DNA of 64,000 nucleotides from Clostridia bacterium (GCA_045589355.1 JAZNOW010000073.1:680-64679), one strand, 5' to 3'; counted from the first letter of the stretch, positions 10,307-54,760 are shown. The notes: generated by a model not told the origin, from the sequence alone. A program made the numbers and translations.

Positions 10307-12379
10307 ATGATGGATCATCAGAAAGCACGTGCGCTGGCTACTGAGCTGGTAGCGAAAATGACCCTGGAAGAAAAGGCTTGTCAGCTGCGCTATGACGCCC
10401 CCGCCATCGAACGGCTGGGTATTCCCGCCTACAACTGGTGGAACGAAGGCCTCCACGGCGTGGCCCGCGCCGGCACTGCCACCGTGTTTCCCCAGGCCAT
10501 TGGTATGGCTGCCATGTTTGACGATGAAGGCCTGAACGAGATTGCCAGGATCATCGCCCACGAAGGCCGCGCCAAGCACAATGCCAACTCCACCCACGGC
10601 GACCGGGACATCTATAAGGGCCTGACCTATTGGTCCCCCAACATCAACATTTTCCGTGACCCCCGCTGGGGCCGCGGCCATGAAACCTATGGTGAAGATC
10701 CCTACCTCACCAGCCGTCTGGGCGTGGCTTTCGTCAAGGGCCTGCAGGGGGACGGCGAATACATGAAGATCGCTGCCTGCGCCAAGCACTATGCCGTGCA
10801 CTCCGGCCCCGAAGCCATCCGCCACGAATTTGACGCCATTGCCAACGAAAAGGATATGCGGGAAACCTACCTGCCCGCTTTTGAAGCGCTGGTGAAGGAA
10901 GCGGACGTGGAATCCGTCATGGGTGCCTACAACCGCACCAACGGCGAACCCTGCTGCGGCAGCAAAACCCTGCTCATGGACATCCTGCGGGATGAATGGG
11001 GCTTTGAAGGCCATGTGGTGAGCGACTGCTGGGCCGTGCGCGATTTCCACACCCGTCATATGGTCACCGATACCGCGCCCGAATCCGCCGCCCTGGCCCT
11101 GAAGAACGGCTGCGACGTGAACTGCGGCAACACCTACCTGCACATGATGGAAGCCTATCAGGAAGGCCTGGTAACCGAAGAGGATATCACCAAGGCCTGC
11201 ATCAGCCTCTTTGCCACCCGCTATCGCCTGGGCATGATGGACGAAAACTGCGAGTTCAACAAGATCAGCCTGCTGGAAAACGATACAGATGCGCATGATG
11301 CCGTGGCCCTGAAGGCGGCCCTGCGCAGCATGACCCTGCTCAAGAACGACGGCGTTCTGCCCATCGATAACACCGACAAGGAAAAGGTGATCCTGGTCAT
11401 GGGCCCCAACGCCAACAGTCAGCTGGCCCTGGAAGGCAACTACAACGGCACTTCCTCCCGCTATGTCACCTTCCTGGAAGGTATCCGTGAAGCCTGCAAG
11501 GGCAAGGCACGGGTGATCTATGCCCCCGGCTCCCAGATGTTCAAGGACAACGAAAGCAACCTGTCCCAGTACAAGGATGACCGCCTGGCCGAAGCTGTGG
11601 CTGCCGCTGAACTGGCGGACGTGGTCATTGCCTGCATGGGCCTGGACGCCACCATGGAAGGCGAAGAAGGCGATACCGGCAACCAGTACTTCTCCGGCGA
11701 CAAGAACGACCTGGAACTGCCTGCCGCTCAGAAGCGCGTGCTGGATGCCGTCATCAAGACTGGTACCCCCGTGGTTACCGTGGTGGCTGCCGGCAGCAAC
11801 CTGCGCGTGGAAGAAGGCAATGCTGTGGTGTGGGCATGGTATCCCGGCCAGGCCGGCGGCACCGCCCTTGCCAAGCTTTTGTTCGGTGAAGAATGCTTCT
11901 CCGCCCGTCTGCCCCTTACCTTCTACCACAACGTGGAAGACCTGCCCGAATTCACCGACTATAACATGAAAAACCGCACCTACCGCTACTACGAAGGCAA
12001 GGCCCTCTATCCCTTCGGTTTCGGCCTTTCTTACACCGATTTTGTGTACGAAAACGCTGCTTACGCCGATGGCAAAGTGACCGTCACCATCAAGAACACC
12101 GGCAAGATGGACGCTGAAGAAGTGGCCCAGGTGTACGTGAAGAACGACAGCAAGGATGCGCCCCTGCATCCCGCCCTGTGCGGCTTCAAGCGCGTGTTCG
12201 TGAAGGCAGGCGAAAGCGTGAAGGTGGAAATCACCCTGTCCGCCCTTACTTTCACCGTGGTCAACGACGAAGGCAAGCGCCTGCCCTGCGAAAAGGCTAC
12301 CCTGTACGTGGGCGGCTATCAGCCCGACGCTGTTTCCGCTGAACTCACCGGCAAAAAGAGCCTGGAAATCAACCTGTAA
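10307..12379 (+). CDS. GH3 family glycoside hydrolase (beta-xylosidase/beta-glucosidase type)
   Basis: ORF 10259..12379 trimmed to ATG 10307 behind AAAGGAGAG. GH3 motifs NWWNEGLHGV, KHYAVHSGPE, VVSDCWAV. Fn3-like C-terminus; no signal peptide. Confidence 0.88.
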   Translation: MMDHQKARALATELVAKMTLEEKACQLRYDAPAIERLGIPAYNWWNEGLHGVARAGTATVFPQAIGMAAMFDDEGLNEIARIIAHEGRAKHNANSTHGDRDIYKGLTYWSPNINIFRDPRWGRGHETYGEDPYLTSRLGVAFVKGLQGDGEYMKIAACAKHYAVHSGPEAIRHEFDAIANEKDMRETYLPAFEALVKEADVESVMGAYNRTNGEPCCGSKTLLMDILRDEWGFEGHVVSDCWAVRDFHTRHMVTDTAPESAALALKNGCDVNCGNTYLHMMEAYQEGLVTEEDITKACISLFATRYRLGMMDENCEFNKISLLENDTDAHDAVALKAALRSMTLLKNDGVLPIDNTDKEKVILVMGPNANSQLALEGNYNGTSSRYVTFLEGIREACKGKARVIYAPGSQMFKDNESNLSQYKDDRLAEAVAAAELADVVIACMGLDATMEGEEGDTGNQYFSGDKNDLELPAAQKRVLDAVIKTGTPVVTVVAAGSNLRVEEGNAVVWAWYPGQAGGTALAKLLFGEECFSARLPLTFYHNVEDLPEFTDYNMKNRTYRYYEGKALYPFGFGLSYTDFVYENAAYADGKVTVTIKNTGKMDAEEVAQVYVKNDSKDAPLHPALCGFKRVFVKAGESVKVEITLSALTFTVVNDEGKRLPCEKATLYVGGYQPDAVSAELTGKKSLEINL

Positions 12380-12394
12380 TCAACAGAAAATTGC

Positions 12395-12428
12395 AAGCCG
12401 CGGTCTTCCTGGCCGCGGCTTTTCTTTG
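12395..12428 (+). terminator. rho-independent terminator after the GH3 gene
   Basis: GCCGCGG ... CCGCGGC stem followed by TTTTCTTT. Confidence 0.7.
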
Positions 12429-12864
12429 GGGGAGACCATGGAGGGGCGTTGCCCCCTCCACCCCCAGCAGGGACATTGTCCCTGCACCCAGAGGTGGAAT
12501 TGTAATATGTATCCGTCAAACAATTTTCCGGCGGTACAGCATAACACGCACACACATTTTCGCAAGAGAAAGATTGCATTTTTGCGAATTGGGTGTGGCA
12601 CTGCCGCCCACGGGCTGGGCGGTGTTCCACCGCCTGCCGGATGCTTAGGCATCCGGGGAAAACGAAAAAAAAGAAGCGGTGAGAGAATAAATTCTCTCAG
12701 CCGCTCTTTTTTTCGTTTTCATGGCGCCCGTGGCTGAAACCGCTTGGTTTTTTCAAGCAACATGCGAAAACAACCATTTTCGATACATCCTGTTTAGTCG
12801 CAGGAAGGGTGCAGGGCGGATCGCCCTGCCGAGGGGTACAGGGGGCGCGTAGCCCCCTGCTTCG
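12428..12864 (+). repeat. hairpin-rich mosaic intergenic element, full copy 1 (MITE/BIME-like)
   Basis: Homologous by eye over its whole length to 46879-47310 and to the reverse complement of 32443-32938. Two-hairpin end modules at both ends and a central long hairpin at 12658-12720. Confidence 0.8.
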
Positions 12865-12925
12865 TGGTTCTGTAAGCAGCACGCGGACACAACTTCTTCT
12901 AATCAATTTTGTTTTATCGCGCACT

Positions 12926-13010
12926 GGGTCAAGGGCCGATGGCCCTTGTGGGGCCAGGGGCAATGCCCCTGGTGCCGTGGTACGGGGGCTGCATAAGCCC
13001 CTGCCCGGTC
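12926..13010 (+). repeat. solo end module of the same repeat family (three GC-rich hairpins)
   Basis: CAAGGGCCGATGGCCCTTG, CCAGGGGCAATGCCCCTGG and GGGGCTGCATAAGCCCC..CTGCCCGGTC. The 3' part (GGTAC-GGGGGCTGCATAAGCCCCTGCCC-GTC) closely matches the 3' end of copy 3 at 47278-47310; the extra CCAGGGGCAATGCCCCTGG hairpin is the copy-2 type. It overlaps the stop codon of the convergent gene. Confidence 0.75.
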
Positions 13011-32266: not shown

Positions 32267-32442
32267 ATCCTTCCCTCCAAACGATCAAAGTAATCACAAA
32301 AACCTGCAATTACTTTATCATAGTATGCGCGTTTTGTAAAGAATGATGCAAGTTTTTCGGAATATGCGTGAAAAAACAAAAGTTTTTTTAGAATGCTGTT
32401 GTTCGTAAAAAAGAAGCAGTGTCCGCTTGCAGCTTGGGGAAC

Positions 32443-32938
32443 GACGGGGCAGGGGGCTCCTCGCCCCCTGTACCCTCACGCCAGGGGCATTGCCCCTGGA
32501 CCCTTCCTGCGATGCAGAAGATTGCTTTTCCAAACTTCTTTCCGCATGTTCCTTGGGGAAACGAAACGAGAACCCACGGGCGCAATGAAAACGAAAAAAA
32601 GAGCGGATGAGAGAATTTATTCTCTCACCGCTTCTTTTTTACCGTTTTCCCCGGATGCCCAAGCATCCGGTTGGCGGTGTAGCACCGCCCAGCCCGTGGG
32701 GCGGGTGGCAGTACCACTTCCAATTCGCAATGCAATAATCGTCGCTTGCAATCGGGTTTCTGCGTGGCGGCAGTGCCGCAGCCAATTCGCAAAGAAACGA
32801 TCTTCCTCTGCGAAAGAGTGTGTGCGTGTTACGCGTTTTCACCGGGAATCTGTTTGTTTGATGCAAATTGCAATTTCCGGAAATGGGTCCAGGGGCAATG
32901 CCCCTGGTGGGGTGTGGGGCAACGCCCCATGAATCCCC
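32443..32938 (-). repeat. hairpin-rich mosaic intergenic element, copy 2 (inverted orientation, with internal duplication)
   Basis: Its reverse complement aligns by eye end-to-end with copies 1 and 3. The GCGAATTGG..GGCACTGCC box occurs twice. Central hairpin at 32587-32649. Confidence 0.8.
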
Positions 32939-32940
32939 GT

Positions 32941-34014
32941 TTACTTTCGTTTCATGAACAGTATCTTCCCGGGGCAGGGGGAATCGGGGTTGCCGGTGGG
33001 GCCCCAGGCGCAGCCGCCCTTGCAGTGCAGGCAGGTGCCGGTATCCCGGCCGGCCAGGGCATCGCTGGCGAAATTGTAATTTACCAGATGGCCGCGGCCC
33101 ACGTCGATGCCGTCAATACCGGTCAACGCCAGCACCCCCCGGGCCATTTCGCCGTCGGTGATCATGTCCACGCTGAACACAGGGGTATCCGGCAGCATTT
33201 CCTTGATTTTCATGGCGGCATAGAAGGAGGGCCGATAGGGGAAAGAGGCAGGGCAGGCAGACACGTCGCTGTCGATGCCGTAGGAGATATCCAGGAAATC
33301 CACATACGGGGCCAGGGCCCTGGCATGGCGCAGGCCGTCCTCCATGGTGGGCTCAAAAGCCGCCAGGCGGATGCCGACGCAAAAATCCTTACCGCAGGCA
33401 ATGCGGATGGATTCCAGAATTTCTTTGACAAAAAGGGTTCTGTCTTCGCCGTATTCGTCGGTACGGTGGTTGACTTTGCTGCTCAAAAACTGGCTGAGCA
33501 GATAGCCGTGGCAGCCGTGCAATTCCACCCCGTCCAGCCCGGCCGCCTTGCACCGCAGGGCTGCCTTGACGAAGGCATTGCGGATGTACACAATGCGGTC
33601 CAGCGTCATTTCCTTGCCGGGGGTATGGTGGGGGTGGGTGGGAACATAATCGCTGGGGCAGTCGGCCACATCGTCAATGCCGTTGATGCCGGCGTGATGG
33701 ATCTGGGCCAGCAAGGGCGTGCCGTTTTCGTGGCACACTTCCGCCAGGCGCTTCCAGCCTTCGATCTGCTCATCTTCCCACAGCCCCAGCTGAGTTTCGT
33801 GCAGCCTGCCCCGCTTGGTGACGCACACGGCTTCGGAAAAAATGACGCCGGCGCCGCCCTGGGCCAGGGCGCGGTAGTGGGCGATGTTGCGGGGGGTGAC
33901 CATGCCGGTATCGTCCGTCCAGTCAAAGCACACCATGGCGGGCACGGCAATGCGGTTTTTGACGGTGACGGGCCCCATTGTAAAGCTGTCGGACAGCTGT
34001 TTCATACAATGCAC
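32941..34014 (-). CDS. NADH:flavin oxidoreductase (Old Yellow Enzyme family)
   Basis: VKNRIAVPAM, QIHHAGI, GLDGVELHGCHGYLLSQFLS. Cys-rich C-terminal tail CLHCKGGCAWG. Confidence 0.85.
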   Translation of the reverse strand: MHCMKQLSDSFTMGPVTVKNRIAVPAMVCFDWTDDTGMVTPRNIAHYRALAQGGAGVIFSEAVCVTKRGRLHETQLGLWEDEQIEGWKRLAEVCHENGTPLLAQIHHAGINGIDDVADCPSDYVPTHPHHTPGKEMTLDRIVYIRNAFVKAALRCKAAGLDGVELHGCHGYLLSQFLSSKVNHRTDEYGEDRTLFVKEILESIRIACGKDFCVGIRLAAFEPTMEDGLRHARALAPYVDFLDISYGIDSDVSACPASFPYRPSFYAAMKIKEMLPDTPVFSVDMITDGEMARGVLALTGIDGIDVGRGHLVNYNFASDALAGRDTGTCLHCKGGCAWGPTGNPDSPCPGKILFMKRK

Positions 34015-46526: not shown

Positions 46527-46752
46527 GATAAAAAAATACGCCCATGCCCTATGCATGGGACGAAGTTCACTTCGCGGTGCCACCCAGCTTGAAAGGCAAT
46601 GCCTTTCCGCTTTCTTTTCCGTAACGCTGAAATGCGCCTGCTCTCGCAGGAGGCTCCGGGGTGTCCCATCCGTGCGGCGATGCGCTGCTTTCAGCCGGGG
46701 CGGCGCTCTCTTTGATCGCAACTGACCGGATTTCTTCCCATCATTGCCGGTG
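46527..46752 (-). promoter_or_regulatory. T-box riboswitch leader (His specifier) controlling hisS-aspS
   Basis: Minus strand: stem I AGAGAG and GCUGAAAGC elements. His codons CAU/CAC lie in GCGCAUCGCCGCACGG. T-box core UGGGUGGCACCGCG (46587-46573). Terminator CCCAUGC..GCAUGGG plus U7 (46560-46531). Confidence 0.85.
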
Positions 46753-46759
46753 TTTTCTT

Positions 46760-46788: not shown

Positions 46789-46878
46789 CAAAATTCAGAA
46801 TTCAGAATGAAGAATTCAGAATTGGGGTTTGTTGGTGATGAAAGGCTGTATCTTTCATACAGTTTCCCGGTGAAGCTT

Positions 46879-47310
46879 GGGGGACGATGCGGGGTTTCAC
46901 CCCTGCACCCCACCAGGGGCATTGCCCCTGGACCCTTTTTCCGGAAACAGCAATTCGTATCACACAAACAGTTTCCCGGTGGAACAGAGCATCACGCAGA
47001 CACACATTCGCAGAGGAAGATTGTATTTTTGCGAATTGGCTGCGGCACTGCCGCACCACGGGCTGGGCGGCGGAACGCCGCCAACCGGATGCTGTGCATC
47101 CGGGGAAAACATGAAAAAAGATCGGAGGGAAAGCAAGCTTTCCCGGCCGACTTTTTTCAATGTTTTCATAGTGCCCGTGTGCTTTCGTTTCGCTTTTCCA
47201 AGCAACATGCGGAAAGAAGTTTGGAAAAACAGTTGTCTGCATCGCAGGAAGGGTGCAGGGCCGATGGCCCTGCTGCGGGGTACAGGGGCTGCATAAGCCC
47301 CTGCCCCGTC
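46879..47310 (+). repeat. hairpin-rich mosaic intergenic element, copy 3 (reference copy)
   Basis: The 5' end (46879-46940) is an imperfect inverted copy of the 3' end (47249-47310). Central hairpin at 47105-47167. Homologous to copies at 12.4, 32.4 and 54.3 kb. Confidence 0.8.
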
Positions 47311-47321
47311 ATTTCCTGGAA

Positions 47322-47354: not shown

Positions 47355-47400
47355 GTGATTGTAAACCAGCAATTCTGAATTCTTAATTCTTCATTCTGAA

Positions 47401-49116
47401 TTATTTCATGATTTCCTGGGCAGCAGCGGTGAGCTGAGCGTTCAGGGCATCGGTGGCTTCCTGGGTATCCGCCTTGGTGGCCACGTAGAGCTTGATCTTG
47501 GGCTCGGTGCCGCTGGGACGGATGCACAGCCAGTTGTTGTTTTCCAGTTCGAAGTAGAGCACGTTGGACTTGGGATAATCCAGCTTTTCTTCCTTGCCGT
47601 CGGCAATGCGGATGGAGCGGCCGAAGTCCCGGATGCCGGTGACCTTCAGGCCGGCCAGTTCAGCGGGAGGATTGTTGCGCAGGTTATCCATGATGCCCTT
47701 CATCTTTTCCACGCCGTCCTTACCGGGAAGCACCACAGAATGGCCGGTTTCCTTGTAGTAGCCGTACTTGCGGTACAGCTTCTGCAGGGCGTCGTAGAGG
47801 GTTTCGCCGCGGTCCATGCAGGCGCAGGTGGTTTCGCACAAAAGCAGGGAGGCGTTGACGCCGTCCTTGTCGCGCACCTGGGTGCCGGAGAGGTAGCCGA
47901 AGCTTTCTTCGAAGCCGAAGACGAAGGTATGGTCGCCCTTTTCTTCGAACTGCTGGATCTTTTCGCCGATGAACTTGAAGCCGGTGAGCACGTCAAAGAT
48001 CGGGATGCCGTAATCGTCGCAGATGGCCTTGGCCAGGTTTGTGGACACAACGGACTTCACGGCAGCGGCGTTTGCGGGCAGGGTGCCGTTGGCTTTGCGG
48101 CTTTCCAGGATGTGGCTGAGCATCAGGCAGGCGATCTGGTTGCCGGTGAGGGTACGCCAGATGCCGTCCTTGTCTTTCACGGCGCAGCCCAGGCGGTCGC
48201 AGTCAGGGTCGGTGCCGAAGACGGTGGTGGCGCCCACTTCTTCTGCCAGCGGGATGGCCATTTTGAAGGCGGCGGGGTCTTCAGGGTTGGGCGCGGTGAC
48301 GGTGGGGAAGCGGCCGTCGGGGGCTTCCTGTTCCTTGACCACAGTGACCATGGTGATGCCCAGTTCCTTAAGCAGGCGGCGCACCGGCACGTTGCCGGAG
48401 CCGTGCAGGGGGGTGTAGACGATGTTCAGGTCCGCGCCCCGCTTTTCCAGCAGTTCCGGACGCAGGGACAGGGTTTTCACCATTTCGATGTAATCATCGT
48501 CCACTTCCTTGTTGCCGATGATCTGCAAAAGGCCCTTGGCCTTGGCTTCTTCTTCCGCCATGGGCACGCATTCTTCGTACTGAAGGGCGTTGATGCTGGC
48601 GATGATTTCATCTGCCACGTCGGGGCCGATCTGCGCGCCGTCTTCGCCGTACACCTTGTAGCCGTTGTACTGGGGCGGGTTATGGCTGGCGGTGATGATG
48701 ACACCGGCAGCAGTGCCCAGATGGCGCACGGAATAGGAAAGGATGGGCACAGGGCGCAGGGATTCAAACAGGTAGGCCTTGATGCCGGCAGCGGCCAGGG
48801 TGAGGGCGGTTTCCTTGGCGAACACGTCGCTCTTGATGCGGCTGTCGTAGGCCACCACAACGCCCTTGTTTTCGGTGCCGTGGGCCTTGATGTAGCGGGC
48901 CAGGCCCATCGTGGCGCGGCGCACGTTGTATACGTTCATGCGGTTGGTGCCCATGCCCAATACACCGCGCAGGCCGCCGGTGCCGAAGGCCAGGCTGGTA
49001 TAAAAGCGATCTTCAATTTCTTTTTCGTCGTTTTCGATGGATTTCAGTTCAGCAATGGTTTCTTCATCCGCAGCAAAGCGGGTAAGCCAGCTTTTGTATT
49101 CTTCCATATAGCCCAT
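47401..49116 (-). CDS. phospho-sugar mutase (phosphoglucomutase/phosphomannomutase, PgcA-like)
   Basis: FGTGGLRG, active-site TASHNPPQYNGYKVY, GTDPDCDR. Confidence 0.9.
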   Translation of the reverse strand: MGYMEEYKSWLTRFAADEETIAELKSIENDEKEIEDRFYTSLAFGTGGLRGVLGMGTNRMNVYNVRRATMGLARYIKAHGTENKGVVVAYDSRIKSDVFAKETALTLAAAGIKAYLFESLRPVPILSYSVRHLGTAAGVIITASHNPPQYNGYKVYGEDGAQIGPDVADEIIASINALQYEECVPMAEEEAKAKGLLQIIGNKEVDDDYIEMVKTLSLRPELLEKRGADLNIVYTPLHGSGNVPVRRLLKELGITMVTVVKEQEAPDGRFPTVTAPNPEDPAAFKMAIPLAEEVGATTVFGTDPDCDRLGCAVKDKDGIWRTLTGNQIACLMLSHILESRKANGTLPANAAAVKSVVSTNLAKAICDDYGIPIFDVLTGFKFIGEKIQQFEEKGDHTFVFGFEESFGYLSGTQVRDKDGVNASLLLCETTCACMDRGETLYDALQKLYRKYGYYKETGHSVVLPGKDGVEKMKGIMDNLRNNPPAELAGLKVTGIRDFGRSIRIADGKEEKLDYPKSNVLYFELENNNWLCIRPSGTEPKIKLYVATKADTQEATDALNAQLTAAAQEIMK

Positions 49117-54201: not shown

Positions 54202-54308
54202 AGCGTTTTATCTCCTAACCGGCGTTATAAACGCCCATATTCACACAGCCTATATTATAATGGAATAAAGGGTTTCTTGCAAGGGTCTGCGGCAAATTTC
54301 GGGGCGCT

Positions 54309-54585
54309 GGGAGACGATGCGGGGTTTCACCCCTTTACCCCACCAGGGGCATTGCCCCTGGACCCAGTAGCGGATGTTGCTTGGCGTATCGAACAAACAT
54401 TTTCCCGCTGTTATCATGAGAAAAAAGGCTCCCTTGTGGAAAGGAAGCTGGCCCGTAGGGCCTGAGGGATTGCCGTTTCCTCCATCAACATGCGGAAACA
54501 ACCCTGTTAGATAAAATTGTCTTTCGCACTCTGGGTCCAGGGCCGATGGCCCTGGTGCGGGGTACAGGGGACGAGCAGTCCCCTG
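54309..54585 (+). repeat. hairpin-rich mosaic element, copy 4 (short, centrally deleted derivative)
   Basis: Its 5' module is nearly identical to copy 3 (GACGATGCGGGGTTTCACCCCT..CCACCAGGGGCATTGCCCCTGGACCC). It keeps the CAACATGCGGAAAC box and the 3' module (GGGTCCAGGGCCGATGGCCCTGGTGCGGGGTACAGGGG..CCCCTG). The central long hairpin is missing. Confidence 0.7.
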
Positions 54586-54663
54586 ATTTGTCCTTTGCAG
54601 CAAAATTTCCGGCACGAATGGGAAAAAGTGCGGGAAAGGGGGCAGAAAAATGAGAAAAAAAGC

Positions 54664-54692
54664 TTGCAATTTCGGGAACAGTCCTGTATAAT
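54664..54692 (+). promoter_or_regulatory. sigma-70 promoter of rpsF-ssb-rpsR
   Basis: TTGCAA (54664-54669), 17-nt spacer, TATAAT (54687-54692). Confidence 0.65.
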
Positions 54693-54760
54693 ACATTCTT
54701 GGCACATCCTTGCATCCTGCAAAGGACAGGATGCCATACGTCCATGAGGAGGTGAAAAGA

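Follow-up and report, generated by a model that had tools for sequence, protein, structure and literature searches.

Compensated substitutions in the hairpins of a multi-copy intergenic element from ruminant-gut Clostridia

Compensatory changes keep the single-stranded DNA (ssDNA) hairpin of REPINs (Bertels and Rainey, 2011; PMC3116915) as well as the fold of bcr1 (PMC3184786), so that structure-keeping compensation as such is a known phenomenon. Repetitive extragenic palindromic (REP) sequences carry a GTAG or CGTC tag (Di Nocera et al., 2013; PMC3733652), and a REPIN consists of two inverted REPs which, with a short spacer, form one long hairpin of about 70-110 nt (PMC3116915). TIRtrons (TIRYT) are genes similar to REP-associated tyrosine transposases (RAYTs) with long, sometimes double-palindromic terminal inverted repeats (TIRs) that form repeat families (PMC3733652). 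Some structured repeats carry terminators (SPRITE) or are transcribed; bcr1, from the Bacillus cereus group, is transcribed and possesses defined TIRs together with a 5-bp duplication (PMC3184786). We analysed a 64-kb stretch of a Clostridia bacterium (GCA_045589355.1 JAZNOW010000073.1:680-64679), which is called the window here and to which all positions refer. The segment 12426-12869 was confirmed as copy 1 of a non-coding, intergenic, multi-copy element family of uncultured ruminant-gut Clostridia. This family is undescribed, and a literature search by hairpin sequence yielded no paper. Almost every stem of the element is held by compensated substitutions, which supports selection on structure and not on sequence, the exceptions being one central hairpin (CCGGATGC), the outer stems and short tags beside the hairpins.

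Covariation in the end hairpins and the central junction

Each element has two end units, left and right, which measure about 100 nt apiece and are inverted relative to each other, as seen in the four-copy and later alignments. Read from the inside outwards, an end unit comprises a weak stem, GGGT, hairpin b (9 bp, mostly with a 3-nt loop), GGGGT with 1-2 nt, hairpin a (7-8 bp, with a 3-nt or G-N-N-N-A loop) and CGT(T/C)CCC. Left and right ends are alike in architecture, not in sequence, and a variable spacer separates them from a central four-way junction, for which the RNAalifold consensus of 92 copies gave four helices (P1-P4) with 42 pairs, 29 of them with double-sided changes.

As four copies alone give no statistics, larger sets were tested, none of them selected on the stems in question. 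The core set comprised 92 copies in a MAFFT alignment (A2), and the hairpin-b set 130 modules from window and metagenome loci in a plain MAFFT alignment (A6), not selected on ends. Core cells were paired in 95.4% of cases against 86.4% after shuffling (0/500 shuffles), with 278 double-change cells against 60.5 and a covariation score of 0.245 against 0.100; partner-slid controls were 34-56% paired. For hairpin b, pairing reached 99.1% against 76.6% in shuffles and 28-58% in slid controls, with 257 against 58.3 double-change cells and a covariation score of 0.613 against 0.160. The three inner pairs of hairpin b each occurred as several Watson-Crick types, with all four types at the innermost (C-G 47, T-A 33, G-C 22 and A-T 20 at one inner pair, for example), and one outer pair ran stepwise from G-C (100) through G-T (20) to A-T (10). 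An independent hairpin finder detected 56 distinct hairpin-b variants (465 Watson-Crick, 15 G-T and 3 A-C pairs) and 62 hairpin-a variants (398 Watson-Crick pairs of 434, 18 G-T and 8 A-C). A first-pass annotation of the window had proposed that stems are kept by double substitutions and that pairing is under selection, which holds on about 100-130 copies with controls. Its further statement that selection does not act on primary sequence is right for most stems and too strong for the CCGGATGC hairpin, the CCAGGG/CCCTGG outer stem and the GGGT/GGGGT tags, all of which are conserved in sequence. The copies in the window and the parts of copy 1 are as follows:

12426-12869, plus strand: copy 1, subfamily A (nhmmer span 12430-12869; aligns with copies 2-4)
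12440-12459, plus strand: hairpin a of the left end, GGAGGGGC-GTT-GCCCCCTCC, read from the sequence
12468-12484, plus strand: hairpin b of the left end, CAGGGAC-ATT-GTCCCTG, flanked by ACCCC and ACCC tags
12493-12534, plus strand: the left unit's third stem, which is imperfect, GTGGAATTG...CAATTTTCCGGC, from alignments
12608-12733, plus strand: central four-way junction (RNAalifold, 92 copies)
12608-12615 with 12726-12733, plus strand: P1, CCACGGGC paired with GCCCGTGG, closing the junction
12618-12634, plus strand: P2, 7-bp hairpin GGCGGTG-TTC-CACCGCC (99% of cells paired, double changes at 5 of 7 pairs)
12637-12656, plus strand: P3, hairpin CCGGATGC-TTAG-GCATCCGG, stem invariant and loop variable
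12658-12720, plus strand: P4, long hairpin GAAAACG-A8-(variable stem)-T7-CGTTTTC, from inverted repeats
12811-12829, plus strand: hairpin b' of the right end, GCAGGGCG-GAT-CGCCCTGC, preceded by GGGT
12839-12859, plus strand: hairpin a' of the right end, CAGGGGGC-GCGTA-GCCCCCTG, preceded by GGGGTA
12917-13010, plus strand: extra solo right-end unit, 50 nt past copy 1, with three hairpins, CAAGGGCC-GAT-GGCCCTTG, CCAGGGGC-AAT-GCCCCTGG and CGGGGGCT-GCATA-AGCCCCTG
32440-32941, minus strand: copy 2, full length, with an internal duplication of about 64 nt (four-copy alignment and nhmmer)
46877-47316, plus strand: copy 3, full length, with the pgm terminator on one side and the hisS promoter/T-box on the other (orthologues in loci L243 and L245)
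54306-54597, plus strand: copy 4, both end units kept, centre swapped for a short insert (insertion also in L239 and L241)

All hairpin sequences quoted in the first-pass annotation were found where it had placed them, namely hairpin b, the 3' hairpins and the interior hairpin (P2, with GGCGGCG-GAA-CGCCGCC at this place in copy 3). Besides the copy 1 form of the 3' hairpin (12811-12829), three other variants are visible in the four-copy alignment, in copies 2-4. The CCGGATGC...GCATCCGG stem, described there as invariant with differing loops, occurred three times, with the loops TTAG, TGT and TTGG. The four copies that had been compared all exist, with the corrections that copy 2 lies in reverse orientation and copy 4 is without the centre. 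The hairpin b form CAGGGGC-ATT-GCCCCTG was located at 46914-46930, at 54344-54360 and, on the reverse strand, at 32890-32906, and the third stem of the left unit reads CCGGAAA...TTTCCCGG or GCGGAA...TTCCCGC in other copies. Two subfamilies were distinguished: A, the window type, with P1 as above, and B, of about 370 nt, with GCTTCTGGCC/GGCCAGAAGC as P1, double changes being found at 7 of the 9 P1 pairs. All 18 pairs of P4 vary among the 92 copies, 17 of them with double changes, and the P3 stem was near-invariant also in copies found through hairpin b. When copy 3 was folded, both strands were far better than shuffles (z = -9.95 and -8.63).

The hairpin-b and hairpin-a variants occurred in 106 combinations, and copies about 89% identical over 230-290 nt of context can carry differences in three neighbouring tip pairs, with both sides affected. 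Left and right hairpins differed in 37 of the 37 elements with both ends resolved, so that the local hairpins, and not a left-right pairing, are conserved; a REPIN-type long hairpin joining both ends was rejected for the same difference in end sequences. The pgm-hisS spacer which holds copy 3 is syntenic in related metagenome-assembled genomes (MAGs). In L245, which has a pgm protein of 96% identity, the non-coding flanks match those of the window at 96-99% identity and the element at only 82%; for L243 the identities are 91% in the T-box leader and 76% in the element. At this site, hairpin b changed from CCAGGGGC/GCCCCTGG to GCAGGGAC/GTCCCTGC and the P4 tip from GGGAAAGC/GCTTTCCC to GGGAAAAT/ATTTTCCC, both compensated in place, and P2 and b' have one double change each. 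In the gpmI-rpsF spacer, L239:1-305 and L241 have near-identical flanks to window 54400-54760 and the same element, with a different, duplicated hairpin a and an additional decayed hairpin. The tips of the stems change far more rapidly than the DNA around them. The hairpin-b variant which L243 and L245 have at the copy-3 site is identical to hairpin b of copy 1, and some exchange of hairpin variants among copies by gene conversion is likely. Contigs tend to stop inside the element at the gpmI-rpsF spacer, indicating that it breaks assemblies.

The first-pass annotation had asked whether the apparent compensations might be nothing but differences between a few sub-family consensus sequences, with no intermediate or independent events. 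Subfamilies A and B do account for most of the P1 covariation, and the closest copy pairs share hairpin tips; this explanation is nevertheless hardly tenable, given the 56 and 62 variants with their many combinations, left and right ends that always differ, the wobble intermediates of the G-C/G-T/A-T series and the compensated changes at orthologous loci. Another way to obtain double changes, in this case without any function or selection, would be intra-strand template switching (quasi-palindrome correction) together with gene conversion. Three adjacent pairs differing at once between similar copies, hairpin variants common to different copies (as in copy 1 and at the copy-3 site of L243/L245) and a divergence faster than that of the flanks would all fit. 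However, long-range helices covary too, and P1 spans about 125 nt, which is beyond template switching within a hairpin. Moreover, loops, tags and outer stems are conserved across species, G-T pairs are far commoner than A-C, and the architecture is kept at 70-93% identity across many genomes, which together render this account improbable. Therefore, from the covariation, the non-identical left and right hairpins and the compensated changes at the pgm-hisS spacer, selection on the structure of the element is supported.

Folding strand and proposed mode of action

When hairpin b is read from the inside outwards, 34 G-T cells stand against 4 A-C cells, or, with each distinct variant counted once, 15 against 3. 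Left and right ends have the common G-T variants in equal measure and in the same module orientation, and the wobble-favoured strand has its 3' end towards the element tip at both ends. This asymmetry rules out a duplex-only function and a single one-strand RNA gene. The hairpins might be seen as duplex palindromic sites for dimeric nucleoid or regulatory proteins, for which hairpin formation would be irrelevant; P3 is operator-like, its 8-bp inverted repeat being invariant and the spacer of 3-4 nt variable, and REP/BIME elements bind IHF and gyrase. Sequence-specific binding would, however, conserve sequence, whereas the stems of a, b, P1, P2 and P4 vary freely while remaining complementary, and a G-T versus A-C asymmetry is meaningless in duplex DNA, so that we regard such sites as very improbable.

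Hairpin-b loops are overwhelmingly of 3 nt (TCA 70, GAA 47), and P2 and P3 have triloops as well. In DNA, C-GAA-G forms a hyperstable mini-hairpin, and RNA disfavours triloops. The predominance of 3-nt loops, including the C-GAA-G type, leads us to lean towards DNA. No strand bias was seen in the core, with 49 G-T against 57 A-C in P4, and no promoter-like site was found in the element. Folded ssDNA is therefore moderately preferred over RNA as the selected state.

The explanation which we consider best, and hold with about even confidence, is that the hairpins would fold in the single-stranded state and that the element would behave as a non-autonomous repeat of the type of REPINs or miniature transposable elements with inverted repeats (MITEs). 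An enzyme acting in trans would have the folded ends as its substrate, most likely in the form of ssDNA, and would copy, move or homogenise the individual elements; the centre may additionally act on transcription. Derivatives as known from mobile elements were found, namely tandem end units (window 12917-13010, also L116, L042, L113 and L001), an internal deletion (copy 4) and a foreign mini-element nested in hairpins. From these derivatives and the nesting, together with the copy number and the varied genomic contexts, we infer mobility; it is only inferred since no empty site and no target-site duplication were established. Several points weigh against the proposed explanation. A Pfam scan of 230 open reading frames (ORFs) next to modules showed no recurrent transposase, only housekeeping families recurring more than once, and a RAYT motif scan of all collected DNA was negative. 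Where a left and a right module stand more than 450 nt apart, the genes between them are ordinary ones (AraC, RmlD-like, MBL-fold), with no transposase gene among them. Neither an empty site nor a target-site duplication was detected in rpsF-linked contigs, pgm homologues or outward flanks. The element occupies the same site in several related strains, which a stably inherited cis element would fit equally well; an RNA that is read through from either side would show the same wobble asymmetry at its far end; since several variants share one G-T position, the G-T counts do not represent independent events; and the metagenome set (at least 120 loci) was anchored on P3.

As to details of these searches, all-against-all clustering of the ORFs from the genome loci (at least 118) yielded nothing beyond ABC ATPases, response regulators and DnaQ-like proteins. 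In the rpsF-linked contigs the insertion is present, and the sequence breaks off at the repeat. Orthologous sites in pgm homologues are occupied, L246 being without the element and of different gene order, and exact look-ups of three window proteins in the search for an empty site gave no matches. Outward flanks contain further conserved motifs with no consistent end, and many subfamily-B copies have inverted motifs beyond hairpin a, e.g. ...ACTTAAAGTGTCCTTGA...ACTGAACAATTAC and ...CCCTTGAGAACATAACTGTTAA.

A possible account, though a distinctly less probable one, places the function in RNA. The element would be a cis element read through from its neighbours on either strand, with P4 as terminator and the far-end hairpins protecting the 3' end, and its spread would be secondary. 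The covarying four-way junction of the core is typical of structured RNAs, and in subfamily A the 14-bp imperfect stem of P4 is preceded by A8 and followed by T7, which judged by its sequence would have the form of an intrinsic terminator acting in both directions; a simple terminator scanner reported the inner stem only, on the minus strand, and P4 of subfamily B is without clear T-runs. Copies 1 and 2 lie between convergent genes, and copy 3 and the L005 copy directly past the pgm terminator, whereas copy 4 lies in a divergent promoter region and is without the centre. Maintenance at orthologous sites, G-T wobble on the outward-reading strand at both ends (as for transcripts entering from either side) and the precedents of bcr1, BOX, ERIC and SPRITE (PMC3184786) also fit an RNA. 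Conversely, the element has no promoter-like site and no Rfam family, its hairpins are nearly all of the triloop type that RNA disfavours, the core is without G-U bias on either strand, and tandem end units and shuffled hairpin variants resemble dynamics at the DNA level.

Relatives and comparison with described repeats

In the window, the hairpin pattern matched 13 times against 0.10 expected and the module pattern 7 times against 0 expected, so the repetition is far above chance. Relatives were collected by a genome scan with a pattern in which nothing but the tags and hairpin b's outer stem was fixed (at least 118 loci) and by the P3-anchored metagenome scan, whose loci, all additional to these, include about 100 true copies. 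Overall, at least about 130 further copies came from ruminant-gut Clostridia MAGs and metagenomes, and about 170 end modules were found. Among the genome matches listed, full elements were confined to ruminant-gut 'Clostridia bacterium' MAGs (host animals goat, sheep, buffalo and deer) and one Christensenellaceae MAG. At gathering score, Rfam 15 had no match in the window, the element or three subfamily-B loci, and at E up to 5 only chance-level hairpin matches appeared. BLAST of copy 3 against plasmid and phage collections gave no match.

REPs are GC-rich palindromes of about 20-40 nt, and their cognate RAYT, a tyrosine (Y1/HUH) transposase, is encoded by a single-copy gene that the repeats usually flank. 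Compared with REPs and REPINs, the element likewise consists of short GC-rich extragenic hairpins in many copies (hairpins a and b measure 17-21 nt), with inverted units, clusters or tandem arrays, a short conserved tag beside the hairpin and a proposed single-strand substrate, and its hairpins are also kept by compensatory changes. In contrast, the tag is GGGT/GGGGT (ACCC/ACCCC) and not GTAG or CGTC, each end has two to three hairpins, the two ends enclose a conserved four-way junction and are separated by 200-330 nt, the hairpins of a single element are non-identical between left and right, the hosts are Clostridia, and no RAYT was present among the 230 neighbouring ORFs or in the motif scan. 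The first-pass annotation had suggested a functional RNA or ssDNA structure, citing REP/RAYT and IS200/IS605 hairpin substrates; structural selection is borne out, and the two named systems are analogies only, as the GTAG tag is lacking and the ends are inverted. IS200/IS605-derived miniature elements (PATE) have subterminal hairpins on the same strand at both ends and no inverted ends; such an origin was excluded, since here the ends are inverted, with the wobble on one strand at one end and on the other strand at the other.

TIRtrons appear to be the nearest described concept, compared by description only. They resemble the element in long terminal modules with self-complementary tracts and G-runs and in moderately abundant solo, dimeric and clustered copies, and differ in that the published motif GGGGWSAS does not fit GGGGTAC or GGGGTCT and that no TIRYT gene was seen next to any module. 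With bcr1, ERIC, BOX, Correia/NEMIS, RUP and SPRITE the element shares a non-coding, interspersed nature, a size of about 100-500 nt and a compensated predicted fold, these repeats being found in Firmicutes and other bacteria (PMC3184786); different from bcr1 are the ends conserved in structure and not in sequence, the four-way junction and the arrays of end hairpins. Of the features of MITEs, which derive from DDE insertion sequences, small size, non-coding nature and multiple copies are present. As for TIRs, architecture and tags are inverted, the hairpin sequences differ between the ends, and the outermost ends are not fixed. The attC sites of integrons, which are recognised as folded single strands with strand selectivity and have a variable sequence with complementarity kept, reside with R/L boxes in cassette arrays next to an integrase gene, whereas the elements here are scattered among housekeeping genes. 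The most suitable classification of the element is that of a variant among REPIN/MITE-like structured repeats.

A two-hairpin module with ACCCC spacers was also observed in numerous other phyla, where it often forms tandem arrays of about 25 nt; they include Magnetococcales, Acetobacteraceae, other Alphaproteobacteria, Streptomyces, Chloroflexota, Riflebacteria and Desulfovibrio. Within the loci L002-L117 it occurs, for example, at L035:400-480, L071:4335-4503 and L101:7540-7680 and, in Streptomyces, in L024, L025, L073 and L083. Another perfect hairpin, 5 bp or longer, lies immediately upstream in 84/97 of the non-Clostridia pattern matches listed, compared with 6% of control windows. As a speculation that we think unlikely to be correct in full, the module GGGGC-NNN-GCCCC, ACCCC, CAGGGGC-NNN-GCCCCTG, ACCC might represent a third, 'ACCCC-tagged' REP-like superfamily beside those of GTAG and CGTC, present in many phyla and with its own structure-reading enzyme. 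In ruminant Clostridia it might have captured the four-way junction as cargo and become a mobile element defined by shape, with attC-like hypervariable stem tips.

The foreign mini-element mentioned above, of about 108 nt (ACGAACCGCCGATGACCGCC...CATCGGCGGTGAGATCAGCCGAAACAAGCAAT...TTGCGCCGATTGAGGCTGCGGA), is inserted in the hairpin arms of metagenome loci (for example L167 at about 1655-1765, L217, L122, L230, L203, L209, L154, L183, L148, L181 and L184), directly after CAGGG, CAGG or TGGGG. It has two hairpins of its own and no Rfam match, and its target behaviour resembles that of IS200/IS605-derived miniature elements.

Genomic setting and significance

The four copies and the extra end unit in the window are all intergenic, with element lengths of about 290-500 nt and a frequency of about one copy per 15 kb. 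Upstream of copy 1, a GH3-type glycosidase gene ends at 12379 and is followed by its own terminator (12395-12421), and downstream a convergent gene has its end at 13009. The copies are distinguished by indels, duplications and the central deletion, and no reading frame is therefore kept in the element. The extra unit at 12917-13010 shows a compensated change from C-G to A-T in the outer stem of CAAGGGCC/GGCCCTTG and a G-T wobble in another of its hairpins. In copy 2, the tandem duplication of about 64 nt (32700-32800) comprises the segment TTGCGAATTGG and a GC-rich hairpin, and a comparable duplication was seen in L113. In copy 4, a short hairpin-rich insert (AGGCTCCCTTGTGGAAAGGAAGCTGGCCCGTAGGGCCTGAGGGATTG) stands at 54400-54470 in place of the centre; in L019, L023, L111 and L113 the same insert is located between the left unit and an intact core, indicating a separate optional sub-module.

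The hisS gene next to copy 3 is preceded by a T-box leader (46553-46753, minus strand; 83.7 bits, E = 7e-19), which the default Rfam scan missed because its score is just below the gathering score of 93, and by a TTGACA/TATAAT promoter just upstream of this leader. Around copy 3 and the pgm terminator lies an inverted repeat of AATTCAGAAT units (46792-46836 and 47365-47402; 33-38 nt, 84-91% complementary). It is present in the orthologous L245 locus, absent from L243 and found nowhere else in the window or the fetched loci; as it is unique to the copy-3 site, it was rejected as the true terminus of the copy.

If the proposed selection on shape is true, an abundant element of a poorly studied group of gut Clostridia would owe its preservation and propagation to the shape of its DNA or RNA and not to its sequence. 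As a natural data set on covariation the element is unusually clean, having all four pair types at neighbouring positions as well as wobble intermediates, and it offers a test case for structure-reading transposases or recombinases outside Proteobacteria. In practical terms, metagenome assemblies break at such elements, which may also provide terminators between genes. Finally, the hairpin arrays in distant phyla suggest a wider, uncatalogued family.

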